Assembly: GCA_964016885.1 (NCBI GenBank)
Contig: OZ024742.1
Span: 135,780,001 to 135,844,000, forward strand
Direction of reading: 5' to 3'
Source: Eledone cirrhosa
Taxonomy: Eukaryota
DNA: 64,000 nucleotides
The number at the start of each line of letters is the position of its first letter. Positions within the stretch are counted from its first letter, which is position 1. The notes under the pieces are model-generated. The model was not told the DNA's origin and made no database searches. It was given only the letters and a program-made list of their open reading frames with translations. Made by a program: the position numbers and the translations under genes. Of the stretch, positions 9,168-64,000 are shown in pieces.

Positions 9168-9356
9168 AACGACGGAAATGTGGTAAGGAACCAGGTGGAC
9201 CATAACGCACCAAAGTACTCAATACTTAGGGTAGTAGAGTGGGTAATAGGAACGAGTAGGACCCCGAGGGCTGAGCTCAAGCCGGTTCGACGGCCAATTC
9301 TGGACTTAGCCGTCGAAACGGCTTGAGCTCAGCCGTCGGGGTCCTACTCGTTCCTA
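9168..9356 (-). mobile_element. Family A PLE-type end: tail plus fold-back inverted repeat centred in HHR stem II
   Basis: Arms 9247-9295 and 9308-9356. HHR 3' half GTCGAAAC-GGCT-tgagctc-AGCC-GTC-GGGGT. Flanked by TA repeats; 8 copies in the window. Confidence 0.85.
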
Positions 9357-9388
9357 TATATATATATATATATATATATATATATATA

Positions 9389-9546
9389 CGTTTATCCCGG
9401 GTTCAATAGGGGGTAACCACAGTAAGTAAGGTACTCAATACAAAGCAGAGTATAAATATTTAATATAGAAATCATCAGCAAAGCCCTGATGATTTCTTCC
9501 GAATGAAGCAGTTCTAGTCTTGTAGAAGCCATTTCTATATTAGATA
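9389..9546 (-). mobile_element. Short PLE-type inverted insertion with tail stem-loop (9433-9451)
   Basis: TATTTAATATAGAAAT (9457-9472) is inverted at 9531-9546. CTGATGA occurs on both arms. Tail reads ACTC-TGC-ttt-GTA-TT-GAGT on the minus strand. Confidence 0.6.
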
Positions 9547-9739
9547 CACACACACACACACACACACACACACACACACACACACACACACACATATATA
9601 TATATATATATATATATATATATATATATATATATATATATATATATATATATATATATATATATAAAGCTCTACAGGTTCATTCTGTCATTACAACACC
9701 AGCGGTCAGCGAGCTTTTGTTCCAGAGTCGGGCTAGATC

Positions 9740-9842
9740 GATACGGATCGAACTTTGGGCTGATTAATAGCGAAACGCGCGTTACTACTCAATAATCGTA
9801 ATGAATACATAACAACCCGTCCTCTTATTATTGTTATTTTAA
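9740..9842 (+). mobile_element. PLE-type end with HHR 3' half
   Basis: TAGC-GAAAC-gcgc-GTT, with a palindromic stem III (AACGCGCGTT) typical of minimal PLE hammerheads. Confidence 0.4.
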
Positions 9843-9894
9843 ACACACACACACACACACACACACACACATATATATATATATATATACATAT

Positions 9895-58996: not shown

Positions 58997-59123
58997 AACG
59001 AAGGAAGTGTGGTAAGGAACCAGGTGGACCATAACGCACCAGAGTACTCGATACTTAGTGTAGTAGAGTGGGTAATAGGAAAAGAGTCAGGACCCCCGAC
59101 GACTGAGCTCCGGCCGTTTCGAC
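58997..59123 (-). mobile_element. Family A copy truncated at the base of HHR stem II
   Basis: Tail through CCGTTTCGAC, then microsatellite. Confidence 0.85.
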
Positions 59124-60851
59124 CATATATATGTGTGTGTGTGTGTGTGTGTGTGTGTGTGTGTGTGTGTGTGTGTGTGGTTGTTTGTGTGTGTGTGTGT
59201 GTGTGTGTGTGTGTGTGTGTGTGTGTGTGTGTGTGTGTGTGTGTGTGTGTGTGTGTGTGTGTGTGTGTGTGTCTCTGTGTGTGCGTGCGGGTGTGTGTGT
59301 GTAAATTATGGAAGAGCTGAACAATTTAAGTTTTTTGACAATGTAGGAAACAACGCAGTAGAGAACTTTAACCAAAATCGATTGCTGTGAATAATAGCTT
59401 AGAATTTGGAGCAAAATACCCCATAGACGACAGCCCCCTAATGCAATAGTTAGAGAATTTAGTCAGAATTCGAGAGATCAGGTGTTCGATATATCTTTGC
59501 TGCGGCTGCTGGCCACTTCCCTCGGTCCCCTGAAGTATTTTCCCCCACCATTTTAAGATATTAAATATACCGATTGACTGATGTTACATTCATTTTCTGT
59601 GATCTTCGTTCCTACATTTTCAAATACACACACACACACACACACATATATATATATGTATATATATATATATACATATAGATGTATACATGTGTGTGTG
59701 TGTGTGTGTATCTGTGTGTGTATGTGTGTGTGTGTGTGTGAGTGTGTGTGGGTGTGTGTGTGTGTGTGTGTGTGTGTGTGTGTGTGTGTGTGTGTGTGTG
59801 CGTGTATGTGTGTGTGTGTATGTGTGTGTGTGTGTGTGTGTGTGTGTAGATTTATAGTTATTTATGTACTGTTATTCTTATAATCTTCTCTTCATCGCTG
59901 TTAAACTTCATGAAGAGTGACATCCTTGTCTTGTGTCTCGATCTCAGTCTAAGAATAAGAAAACAAAAACAGAAATCGTGGAACAATAAACAGACAGATT
60001 ATTTAGTGAGAGAAAGTAAAGGATAGAGAAAGCAAAGTAGTGCAGTTGGAAAGACAGAGAGAGAATGAGGGAGTCACTAAAGCACCACGCTGTTGTATTG
60101 TTTGTTCAGCAATGAGAGAAATATATATATGTATTTGTATCATAAACTGAATTTCAGCCTACTCCTACTTCTCGAATACAAAAAGTGAATTATAGCCAGA
60201 AACACAAACACACATATTTTTTTCATTGGACTGCGTTGATGCTGGATCTCAGCACTTAATGTTCTCAACAATAAACGTTATTTTATCGATCTGCTTTTCT
60301 CGAACCGCTAACCTATGAGTATTAACCAAACGCATACAGACAAACACTCACACATAAAACACACATATATATTTGTATATGAATCTGGATGTATGTTTGT
60401 GTGTGTGCGCACGTGCGTGTGTTATATGTATGTGTGTGTGACTTCAGTTGACAGGTAGTTTTCAAATCATTGACATTATTTTAAAATGTTAAATGACTTA
60501 GAAACCAGGACAAGTTGTATGAGAAAATAAACATAAATTTTGTGTACAATACTGTTTTATATCATCATACACATCGTCTTGGCTTCTAAGACATTTCCCT
60601 ATATACAAAGAGATGGCGTTTGCATATGTGTGTGTTTGCAAATAGAACTGTCGATTGACCAATCCCACAAACAACACACATAAAACCGAACTTATACTTG
60701 AACATCAAAGGATGAACACTTACACAAGAAATGAGGACAATTTATTTTCCTTAAAATTTTACCACCGGGAAGGTGGCCCGACAAAAATAAACTCAATATT
60801 AAGAGAAAGATAGGACATACATATATACATAAATACATTTTAAGTAAATAA

Positions 60852-61038
60852 TTGTTTATACTTTTGGCACAAGGCCAGCAATTAGCCAGTACATTACTGG
60901 TACTTTATTTTATCGACCCTGTAAGGATGAATGGCAAAGTTAACCTCGACGGGATTTGAATTCAGACCGTAATAGGACGTAACTATGCTGGAAAGCATGG
61001 CATCCAACCCTCTACCGATACTGCCAATTCACCGCCCT
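60852..61038 (-). mobile_element. tRNA-derived SINE with 16-bp target-site duplication
   Basis: Same family as 2806. CATTTTAAGTAAATAA at 60836-60851 and 61039-61054. Confidence 0.9.
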
Positions 61039-61369
61039 CATTTTAAGTAAATAAAGGCCTTGCACTGGACCAAACCCGCTCTAATCAGTGGCGACAGATG
61101 GCCTAAAGGAAGAACAGGTCAACATCATTGGCTGCCATCAAGTTGCAGTTTTTACAGCAGATTTTTCCTGCTCCGAGAATGATGTTCTAGCAGGAGCTCT
61201 GGGTTTCTCTCTTCCTGTGTGCTAACCACGTACTTGGGCCCCAAACCGAGTATTTCCATGTCCCCGCGGATTCATACATACATACATACGTACATACATA
61301 CATACATACATACATACATACATACATACATGCATACATACATACATACATACATACATACATACATAC

Positions 61370-64000
61370 GCAGAAGCGACATTCAATTTGTTGGTAATTC
61401 AACAAATATAAATGTTTATAACTGATTCAGAGCACTCGACAGTTTTCTGAAGTATAATATTCATTGATATTAAATAAATGGAAACTATATTTATAAAACC
61501 ATATTTATTCTATTATATATATTTAAAGTGTACCAAAACTTTGGTACGCTTTCATCAGATAAAATACGAAATGTTTTTTATAAATTTTGACATAACCAAG
61601 GAAAATACCTTAACGGTTCAAGTTTTCCTTCTATAGTGAAGGGATAAGAGAAGAAAAGTCAGATATTTCAAATTGTTAAGATGAGTATGCAAATGAGTAT
61701 GCTAATGAGGTTTAGGTAAAGGGTTGAAAAAACGTTATTTTAGAAGCTATGGAGAATTTAAATAATTATGATGTGTTTGTATGCTTAGGAAAGAAGAAAA
61801 AGGAAGATGAGCTTTATTTACATTTGTATTTAAATTTATTTACCTATATTATTATTTTTTATCAGATCTCCTAAATGTGTGTTTATGGTTATGCCAGCGT
61901 TCTTTGAATTTTGTTGAAGTGGCACTAATATAGTTAAATATTTTGTCTCTAGTTTTAACTGTGCATTTATAAACTACGTTTTTGTCTAAACAATTATTTT
62001 GTAAAGGGCAGTTTGATTTGATTGTACAGTTACATTTTATGGAATTGTTGTTGCTCGGAACGGTACTATTGTTCTGAATATTGTTGTTAGGAATATTATT
62101 ATTGTTATTTTGGTTAGTTTGGTTAGGGTTTAAATTTAAGTTTCTATTATTAATTCTATTTATATTGTGTGCTATGTTCATAGTAGTAGAGTAGGATAGT
62201 TTTATAGTGTGTCTGTTAAAAATAGAATGGTATATGAGGGCTTTAGGAAACATTTATCTAGTGCTTTAAAGAATAGCTTTGCTAAAGTTGTTTTAACACT
62301 TAATGTGAATGGGGGAGAGTACCAAATAATATTTATAGTTCTAGTGTTTTGTTTGGTTTAGTGTTTAATTTGAATTGTTTATTATTATTATAATTAATAC
62401 TAGGATGATTTGTCATGTTATTGTTATCCATGTATTTAATTTTATTCGAGTATCCTGCTCTAAGTAAAGCTTCATTATAATATTCTGCCTTATCATCAAA
62501 CATATTTTTATTAGCAGAGATGCGTGAAATCCGTTGTTGGACGCTATTGACAATAGTGATTTTAATACTTCTAGGATGATTAGAATTGAAACTTACATAA
62601 TTCAGATTTTCGTTAATTTTATGGAAAAGATAGTAAAGTACTGTGCTAAGGTTTAAGGTTACATCTAAGAAGTTAACGATTTTGTAGCTATTCTCTATTT
62701 CTAACTTAAGGTTGTAGATGTTGATAAATTGTATTATGGATTTCCTTTTCCTATTAATTTCACTATTGCTATGGTTTTCAATTAAAATAGTCACGATATA
62801 AACTTCCGGTCATCTCTGGCATTTTCCTATGCAGTACATTATGAATAAATAATCCAATGAGGTCCGTTACTTGCGCCGAGTCAGATGATCCCATAGTCAT
62901 ATAAAAATTGTTTTTTCTGTCGGCTCTTATCCAGATATGATTATTATTCTACTTCAATTTCACATTTAATTTTGAATTTAAAACACAACAATATAGACTA
63001 TTCAATATCTTGGAGAACGATTTCGAAAGAGCCTGTATACCGAAATATGGCTTTATCAAGATTCTGTAACTTGTGTATCGAAGACATTTTTTATATAATG
63101 AACTGTCAAAACTCTATTAATCTTAGAACAGAATTATTTTCTTCATGAAGACATCGCCAAAATTCCACGTTCAGAACTATTTTTAATTCATAATATTCCT
63201 ATATACCTTCAAAATGATCCTATCTTCTTAAAAATTTATATGTAAATTTTAAAAATTTTTTAATATATTTAATATTTTTAATATTTTTATTATTTCTAAT
63301 TTTTTTTTATATTTTTACCTTTTCACATTAATTTTTTTTAATATATATATTTAATATATATATTTAATTCTGGCCTTATTTTTCTAATGACACCCTTCTA
63401 AATATATTTTTTTAGGTGTAGATTGATAATCTTTAATTGACATTCTGAAAATGTATTCTTACGATAGTTCTTCGAAAAGCACATTACATTTTTCCTCTAT
63501 TTTGGATATTCAAACTTTTACACATCTTTCCACTCAAATAATTAATCTCACACAAAATAATTTATAATTTTCTTTATATATTTTTTAGTAAATCATTCAT
63601 CAAATTTAACGTTTAACAAACAAAATTGGAGTTATCTTTCCTCTCTCAATCGTGCAAATATAAACATATTATGTATGATAATCTATATAACTTCGCTAAA
63701 TTAACAATATTCTGAAAACATTTTCAATGTTGAACAAAATATTCGAATCTACAAATGTTCTCCTCTCACAACTTGAACCACCTATTTGTTTATGTAAAAT
63801 ACAAAATCAAAATCATTCGTAACATCATTAGAAATATAAATAACTAATAATTGTAAATTATTTCTATTTCTATAATACTAATACATATGCAATTATTAAT
63901 ATATAGATATTTATATACATAACCTATTGTAATGTAATAAAATAAAAATACTTACAAATATAATTCTTCATATAATCTAATTGATCATATATACAATATT
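61370..64000. mobile_element. Second PLE locus: tail/HHR end (-), RT to EN N-half (-), then EN C-half and UTR (+)
   Basis: HHR at 61506-61566 (GAAA mutated to TAAA). Minus 61852-62947 encodes MGSSDSAQVTDLIG, VNFLDVTL, SNHP and CNCx5C. Plus 62945-63185 encodes YSISW...CNLC...NLRTELFS. Confidence 0.85.

Follow-up and report, generated by a model that had tools for sequence, protein, structure and literature searches.

An apparently undescribed bulged hairpin, usually present in two copies, predicts both insertion ends of Hydra-clade Penelope-like elements

The stretch of 64,000 nucleotides (nt) from Eledone cirrhosa described here (contig OZ024742.1, positions 135,780,001 to 135,844,000; hereafter the window) comes from a microsatellite-rich genome of 3.0 Gb and contains Penelope-like elements (PLEs) of the Hydra clade, the 3′ tails of which carry a bulged hairpin with the consensus RCUC-Y..R-UH-GAGY-RCU. 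It is a real, clade-wide and apparently undescribed RNA motif that usually occurs twice in the 5′ leader, and from its two copies both ends of a Hydra PLE insertion can be predicted. From 5′ to 3′ come the hammerhead, copy 1, an interval of 37-67 nt, copy 2 and the start codon, and insertions end at a TA approximately 4-11 nt before either copy 1 (tail-less end) or copy 2 (tailed end). Because they end before one copy or the other, the known PLE "tail" is the interval between the copies. A cis signal for the enzyme of a retroelement is of a known kind; the duplicated, upstream-pointing geometry appears to be new. The survey took in Hydra-type elements and Naiad/Chlamys consensus ends.

A first-pass annotation had listed nine such stretches in the window, and all nine are present at the coordinates and on the strands given. 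Seven satisfy a strict descriptor (RCTC, helix of at least 2 bp, loop, TH, GAGY); the other two deviate in the basal stem, with a U-G pair at 61434-61453 and a mismatch at 51427-51447. The upper helix of the family here called A, of which there are seven copies in the window, is paired as described, but over 4 bp rather than 3. Every cited site lies 38-65 nt before a (TA)n-type junction, the end belonging to the site at 29017 being ambiguous (38 or 56 nt). Altogether the descriptor matches the window 20 times: 13 matches are in element tails and 7 are chance-like. The annotation took its eight families to be unrelated, which did not hold: seven connect to Hydra-type open reading frames (ORFs), namely family A, the coding family B and those at 61434/51427, 23573, 33667, 11029 and 9433, and the window families are therefore divergent members of one clade. 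For the 23573 family the connection is a shared 3′ untranslated region (UTR), which follows Hydra endonuclease (EN) fragments at two loci (L070, L074); for the 29017 family no link to an ORF was found.

Enrichment near PLE ends was measured in 52 stretches of 10 kb (520 kb) elsewhere in the same genome, chosen blind to the motif, which yielded 656 (TA)n junctions in 364 clusters. The motif lies 30-75 nt before 37 of these junctions (18 clusters), whereas 100 rounds of dinucleotide shuffling averaged 0.77 such junctions and never exceeded 4; the excess over shuffled sequence was thus borne out. With loops of at most 40 nt, 35 matches fall at 30-75 nt, with one nearer the junction (0-29 nt) and two farther from it (76-121 nt); of 47 matches within 200 nt of the 656 junctions, 40 end 30-79 nt before the junction. 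On the opposite strand five junctions scored, and with the closing helix reversed none did. Raw match counts were not used as a control, since AT-only closing trimers outscore CTC in them (ATA, 112 junctions). The held-out bulges are TT (22), TC (11), TA (4) and TG (3), others occurring at most twice each; a bulge-free register also scored at 19 held-out junctions. The initial clustering of the held-out set chained some families, and a finer one gave 24 tail clusters including those of the window, a few of which are probably chance.

The motif is also found in other PLE-bearing sources. An alignment of 67 proteins (66 of 123 found, plus that of family B) led to 94 Hydra-type loci in 76 clusters, taken from metagenome and metagenome-assembled genome contigs. 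Strict motifs are present in 37 of 53 foreign leaders (51 matches in 16.7 kb, none on the opposite strand) and in 32 of 76 3′ flanks (35 matches in 40 kb, 8 on the opposite strand), as compared with 3 matches in 159 kb of ORF and 9 on its opposite strand. In most foreign 3′ flanks the hammerhead core is followed by copy 1 after 73-104 nt; in foreign leaders the distance from the start of copy 2 to the start codon is approximately 35-80 nt. Inspection by eye of six published Hydra consensus sequences reveals a clean motif in three (one coral and two sea cucumber families), one sea cucumber consensus having it twice in the leader. Six anchor words of nine letters gave four matches in these six sequences and three in the far longer Naiad/Chlamys files; the words were not seen at the Naiad/Chlamys consensus ends, and the three file matches were without a nearby upstream half in the lines displayed, although line breaks hide some matches in such files. 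Viral contigs returned 600 pattern matches, none of them a relative, and a PDB sequence search found no relative either. Sixteen Hydra-type PLE ORF loci lie in bacterial genome bins, most likely as host animal DNA within the bins.

Covariation was assessed on 90 foreign instances (48 clusters) chosen by sequence anchors only, with no selection on pairing. The first upper pair is formed in 83 of 90 (53 C-G, 28 U-A; shuffle mean 66.4, maximum 75), the second in 55 of 80 (shuffle mean 34.6), the third in 45 of 54 (22.1) and the fourth in 25 of 42 (15.8), whereas the fifth (7 of 22) shows no excess over shuffles. The upper helix thus changes while staying paired, and the loop varies from 3 to 61 nt, both as first proposed. 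The claim that the bulge is always UH needs qualifying: in the foreign instances the first base is U in 88 of 90 and the second is never G, but UG occurs at three held-out junctions. Likewise, the basal pair alternates between A-U and G-C among the families of this genome, but foreign elements are nearly all G-C (76 of 90). Bulges of 0, 1 or 3 nt were rejected as the general register, the first pair then forming in only 4/90, 5/90 and 12/88 instances; pairing of the 3′ ACU with the 5′ flank was discarded as well, position -1 being C, U or A without matching. Internal wobbles (G-U 4, A-C 0, other 4) lean towards the sense strand, the count being small. Flanks upstream of the motif are U/A-rich. 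The two halves are separated by 5 to more than 100 nt, and so variable a spacing speaks against a site in double-stranded DNA.

A covariance model trained on 64 of 66 listed foreign instances places 11 window sites as its top 11 matches and 61434 as 13th of 18, misses 29017, 36265 and 51427, and has 33 matches in the held-out DNA. In the model-fitted alignment, which leans towards the model, pairing holds in 97.9% of cells, with double-sided changes at three pairs. Rfam 15 holds no match at the motif: among the best 150 of 283 rows for the window none is at a motif site and none reaches the gathering score, and 17 foreign loci gave only five weak unrelated matches. Rfam also missed the hammerheads at these loci, so its silence carries little weight.

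The presence of the second copy is what ties the motif to both ends. Two copies were identified in 28 of 44 foreign leaders (a few picks being spurious), 37-59 nt apart in 22 of 23 entries. Family B provides the clearest case. In its tandem units the hammerhead is followed by the motif, 50 nt and the insertion end, and the same DNA runs on to the start codon. From 50 matches to a query upstream of the motif 30 were fetched: 13 stop 4-7 nt short of copy 1, 16 continue to a point 50 nt past it, and one reads through. Tail-less ends lie 5-9 nt before copy 1 in 11 of the 24 tail clusters, with loops of 3-61 nt. Of the 15 foreign (TA)n junctions alignable to a leader, six begin 7-11 nt upstream of the first copy and another six 6-11 nt upstream of the second. 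In six families of this genome the tailed end is followed after 6-8 nt by copy 2: 7 nt in family B, 6 nt in a family from outside the window, and 6 nt in family A, where the leader is visible at 14 of 20 loci, several decayed.

For four window families copy 2 was predicted beforehand, and it was found in three. The patterns presupposed the RCTC half, and the offset and 3′ half are the actual test. The 33667 family has 48 read-through matches with GCTC 6 nt past the end, 9 of 10 fetched ones with the complete hairpin, and a Hydra ORF. The 11029 family has 223 genomic matches with RCTC at most 10 nt past the end, nearly all listed at 6 nt, and 8 of 10 fetched are complete. In the 61434 family copy 2 lies 8 nt past the end and is intact in 4 of 8 leaders that reach the tail. 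The tail hairpin marks the tail-less end; the tailed end is marked by copy 2, which is outside the inserted tail. All nine family B inverted pairs for which both ends were fetched consist of one tailed and one tail-less end. This mixed-end rule rests on these nine and on six window pairs of other families, the latter found via their tails, and agrees with the known one-sided PLE tail.

The host elements are members of the Hydra clade, as judged from protein motifs and homology to relatives. Family B has an ORF of 813 amino acids, read from the sequence as a reverse transcriptase (RT) followed by C-terminal GIY-YIG-type EN motifs, which includes DKT, RWR (RWK-type) and CNCRNKANC (CxCx5C linker); DKT, the RWK-type motif and the CxCx5C linker define the Hydra clade (PMC8557442), known for (TA)n targeting and hammerheads (PMC3846280, PMC8557442). 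The elements here likewise insert at (TA)n and have a predicted hammerhead in the pseudo-long terminal repeat (pLTR). Pfam gave no match on the PLE ORF fragments of the window. The confident structure model of a Hydra relative (P0003; pLDDT, its predicted local distance difference test score, 90.8) has TERT as its best PDB match, a comparison that does not address the RNA site. The family B unit measures approximately 6.6-7.1 kb, against a clade tendency of less than 3 kb, the excess being accounted for by a long repeat-rich 3′ UTR (approximately 4 kb, microsatellite-like). Its 150 scored matches are 99-100% identical over the C-terminal 237 amino acids, many with open frames of 830 codons, and by this sequence identity the family is very young.

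The features of the window are listed below; where no other basis is named, the assignment is by sequence.

9217..9240, minus strand: copy 1 of family A; tailed end approximately 48 nt on; family linked to a Hydra ORF and copy 2
9246..9354, no strand assigned: inverted pLTR arms of a family A insertion; the plus arm stops 8 nt before the motif; tail-less end 9354
9433..9451, minus strand: copy 1 of a second family; tailed end 44 nt on
9944..9967, minus strand: copy 1 of family A, by sequence match
11029..11053, plus strand: copy 1 of a third family; tailed end 59 nt on; copy 2 and Hydra ORF found
23573..23618, plus strand: copy 1 of a fourth family, with a 2-bp upper helix; tailed end 38 nt on
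29017..29052, minus strand: copy 1 of a fifth family; inverted arm stops 6 nt before the motif (29488)
30706..30729, minus strand: copy 1 of family A; tail-less partner end 30833
33667..33706, minus strand: copy 1 of a sixth family; tailed end 53 nt on; tail-less partner end 34156
33769..33811, minus strand: predicted type I hammerhead core upstream of the sixth-family copy 1, read by eye
34465..34488, minus strand: copy 1 of family A; tail-less partner end 34542
36215..36350, minus strand: family B tail of approximately 135 nt, spanning copy 1 and bounded by the tail-less and tailed end positions
36265..36345, minus strand: copy 1 of family B (coding), with a 5-bp upper helix and 61-nt loop; the minimum-energy fold here (z -3.28)
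36404..36558, minus strand: predicted type I hammerhead of family B, with long stem II and palindromic stem III, approximately 60 nt upstream of copy 1; paired by eye
41008..41664, minus strand: inverted 5′-truncated ORF piece of family B, EN end
41669..43282, plus strand: 5′-truncated Hydra-clade RT-EN ORF of family B, residues 280-813 of the full protein
47438..47936, plus strand: other pLTR arm of a family B insertion; tail-less end, 4-7 nt before the expected start of copy 1
50291..50314, minus strand: copy 1 of family A; tail-less partner end 50427
51427..51447, plus strand: decayed copy 1 of a seventh family; hammerhead core at 51336-51378
56058..56081, minus strand: copy 1 of family A, by sequence match
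59046..59069, minus strand: copy 1 of family A, by sequence match
61434..61453, minus strand: copy 1 of the seventh family, approximately 410 nt after the last EN match; tailed end 65 nt on
61852..62942, minus strand: broken Hydra-clade RT-EN fragments of the seventh family

What might the hairpins do? The most probable answer, judging from the sequences, is that each is an RNA signal or docking site that positions the element's RT a few nt upstream of it. Tailed insertions lack copy 2, which must therefore work from a longer precursor, the simplest candidate being RNA that extends past the end into the next unit. This read-through transcript would carry both copies, and the protein, possibly as a dimer, would bind both hairpins. 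At each of the nicks, one per strand of the (TA)n target, the DNA could then anneal to the UA-rich sequence on the 5′ side of one of the hairpins and so prime cDNA synthesis, and the joining of the two cDNAs head to head would give an inverted pLTR with a tail at one end only. In vitro, the RT of PAc, a Poseidon element, initiates internally at two positions, which delimit the tail; nicking and extension affect both target strands, and the protein is predicted to dimerize (PMC11167929). The original proposal of a structured cis signal for RT/EN survives insofar as the motif is a conserved, end-linked and covarying cis element of PLEs; the enzymatic role we infer.

By analogy with HIV TAR and 7SK, the bulged U may form a U-A-U triple with an arginine sandwich, for which we would put the chances slightly short of even. 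The layout of an arginine sandwich is there, with a bulged U in 88 of 90 instances, a preceding pair in 83 of 90 and a purine on the 3′ strand; the U-A pair for the triple is present in 106 of 106 sequences of the model-fitted alignment, which was itself anchored on that pair. Hydra proteins have conserved arginines outside the catalytic motifs, at RWR (57 of 59) and after the thumb (61 of 67 and 64 of 67). A further step, put forward tentatively and with the odds somewhat against it, is that the duplicated TAR-like motif constitutes a two-seat docking code, in which one RT subunit would occupy each hairpin and each would prime the opposite (TA)n strand at a fixed offset.

Several observations weigh against positioning by paired hairpins. 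Among the foreign leaders 12 of 44 have one copy and 4 have none, and by eye two of the six published Hydra consensus sequences have a partial motif and one has none. Three of the 15 alignable foreign junctions do not fit, three of the 12 that do were aligned to the leader of another family, and TA microhomology blurs each end by several nt. In the window, the copy-2 pattern of the 29017 family has no genomic match, the single read-through copy belonging to the 9433 family (L100), located before a Hydra N-terminus, has no clear copy 2, and no read-through copy of the 23573 family was seen. The shuffle comparisons of pairing overstate significance, the foreign instances being related by descent. 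The exact fold is the minimum-energy prediction at only one of the nine window sites (36265); the predicted fold has the bulge register in only 38 of 90 foreign instances and the basal stem in 75 of 90, and copy 2 often has a single upper pair. A marginal fold stabilized by protein would fit these data. Finally, the letters of the PAc stem-loop, as far as they are readable, contain no RCUC/UH-GAGY.

A different actor is conceivable: the GIY-YIG nuclease may read the hairpin on a single-stranded sense strand, RNA or plus-strand DNA, and cut at a TA a few nt upstream, the insertion ends then being cleavage sites. All of the positional data fit this equally well, the ends fall at TA, which Hydra elements prefer as a target (PMC8557442), and there are precedents. 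The bacterial GIY-YIG nuclease SsnA binds a hairpin in single-stranded DNA and cuts a few nt upstream, reading sequence and structure while tolerating loop changes (PMC11893778); the EN of the Drosophila virilis element, as cited by Frangieh et al., needs the tail for recognition (PMC11167929); and Craig et al. ascribe the tail to EN-mediated resolution (PMC8557442). However, SsnA is inactive on RNA (PMC11893778), and the PAc RT starts internally on uncleaved RNA, EN mutants leaving RNA cleavage unaffected (PMC11167929). Copy 2, moreover, being absent from tailed insertions, would have to act before or during cDNA synthesis, when the sense strand would be RNA. Cutting by the nuclease is the main rival reading, though rather unlikely.

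The alternative that the hairpins serve expression (elongation, translation or hammerhead folding), with ends nearby only because UA-rich stretches can pair with (TA)n, draws on the location of copy 2 near the start codon and copy 1 near the hammerhead, on the U/A-rich upstream flanks and on the fact that the look-alikes TAR and 7SK act in transcription (PMC6189040). It is quite improbable, as leaders hold many other TA sites and yet 29 of 30 family B copies end at two, and the hairpin offset is constant from family to family even though the copies lie anywhere between 37 and 67 nt apart. A self-cleaving RNA, a hammerhead remnant or a chance pattern is the least credible explanation and very improbable. 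The conserved UH recalls a hammerhead cleavage site and the silence of Rfam is weak, but a separate hammerhead lies upstream, the motif is without the CUGANGA and GAAA core, and the ends are upstream of the hairpin rather than at the bulge; chance is excluded by the shuffles and by 3 ORF matches in 159 kb against 51 leader matches in 16.7 kb.

Comparison with known systems places the proposed RT-positioning hairpin among several relatives in kind. The closest is the AC-rich stem-loop of PAc (PMC11167929), which also lies downstream of a hammerhead, with two internal RT starts bounding the tail and both target strands used; a protein-binding region was inferred near it. It differs in concerning a single element of another clade, in that the starts are in the stem-loop inside the ORF, and in that no conserved motif or duplication is reported in the accessible text. 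The PLE tail has been described as an optional extension at one end of the inverted pLTR pair, as here, but as 30-40 bp long and, in the accessible portions of these papers, without a sequence signal (PMC3846280, PMC8557442); in the present elements it measures approximately 60-135 nt and is bounded by two conserved hairpins. 7SK has the same A-U-U bulge (A39-U40-U41) with the triple U40:A43-U66, and shares the paired purine, the bulged U and an A-U pair three positions on (PMC6189040). Unlike TAR and 7SK, the motif lies in a retrotransposon leader, its loop caps the opposite helix relative to the usual TAR layout, and the triple and arginine contact are putative. The Ssn system and its NTS hairpin also combine a GIY-YIG protein, a hairpin read by sequence and structure and an event a few nt upstream, but are bacterial, confined to single-stranded DNA and without an RT (PMC11893778). 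In telomerase RNA template boundary elements and DRT10 SL5 (PMC12632851) a stem-loop likewise fixes the site of a telomerase-related RT; these elements are 5′ of the template and stop synthesis, whereas the Hydra hairpin is 3′ of the start site.

The motif is not a hammerhead, the three-way CUGANGA/GAAA core being absent. The 3′-terminal stem-loop of LINEs and SINEs forms part of the copied RNA and lies shortly before the 3′ end at which the RT starts. In Hydra elements each end is upstream of its hairpin and copy 2 is uncopied. The first-pass analogy with LINE stem-loops is accordingly incomplete: the tail hairpin is copy 1 of a 5′-leader pair, with the tail-less end just upstream of it.

The literature search found no description of the motif, in agreement with the first-pass view that it is undescribed; figures, Repbase entries and older tail papers beyond its coverage could mention it. 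On how PLE RTs choose their RNA and start site, the accessible text of the one in vitro study gives two internal starts with no defined signal (PMC11167929). The motif turns the PLE tail into a testable geometry and links PLE RNA recognition to telomerase and TAR-type motifs. A two-seat code, if true, would account for the inverted pLTRs, for the presence of a tail on one side only and for why tandem copies are needed; an approximately 35-nt portable signal would then set the internal start for a telomerase-related RT on any RNA; such a signal could, if portable, direct internal priming on chosen RNAs. For annotators, the motif makes it possible to call exact ends for Hydra elements, a very abundant group in this genome.

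Some further observations concern the elements themselves. The ends of different Hydra families are often stacked in one (TA)n tract (seven loci), each insertion apparently leaving the next target. In family B, copy 2 (leaders L101 and L037) encloses approximately 105 nt of intron-like sequence with a candidate 3′ splice AG within the helix, and splicing could switch the family between template and mRNA; in contigs from four runs of unrecorded kind, no usable joint across this suspected intron was present. In family A the fold of hammerhead shape that precedes copy 1 has a non-canonical core, not CUGANGA, in the copies seen. Hammerhead-bearing families at (TA)n without a visible motif comprise five held-out clusters (C89, C103, C150, C205, C265) and window 50521-50552; these may be tail-less ends or belong to other PLE clades. 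A 1-nt U bulge scored at four held-out junctions, and a hammerhead-bearing family (L294 upstream flank) has a variant in which only one U is bulged and the upper helix comprises 4 bp, related pieces lying at 34179-34350 and 53436-53580.

Besides PLEs, the window contains a broken Helitron on the minus strand (18320-22298, also 15572-16054; Helitron_like_N, E 1.2e-57 at 20163-21608), beside which are frames that are presumably helicase pieces. At 31688-32762 on the plus strand there are fragments, with only a weak DUF6451 match, which we take to resemble a LINE-type reverse transcriptase.

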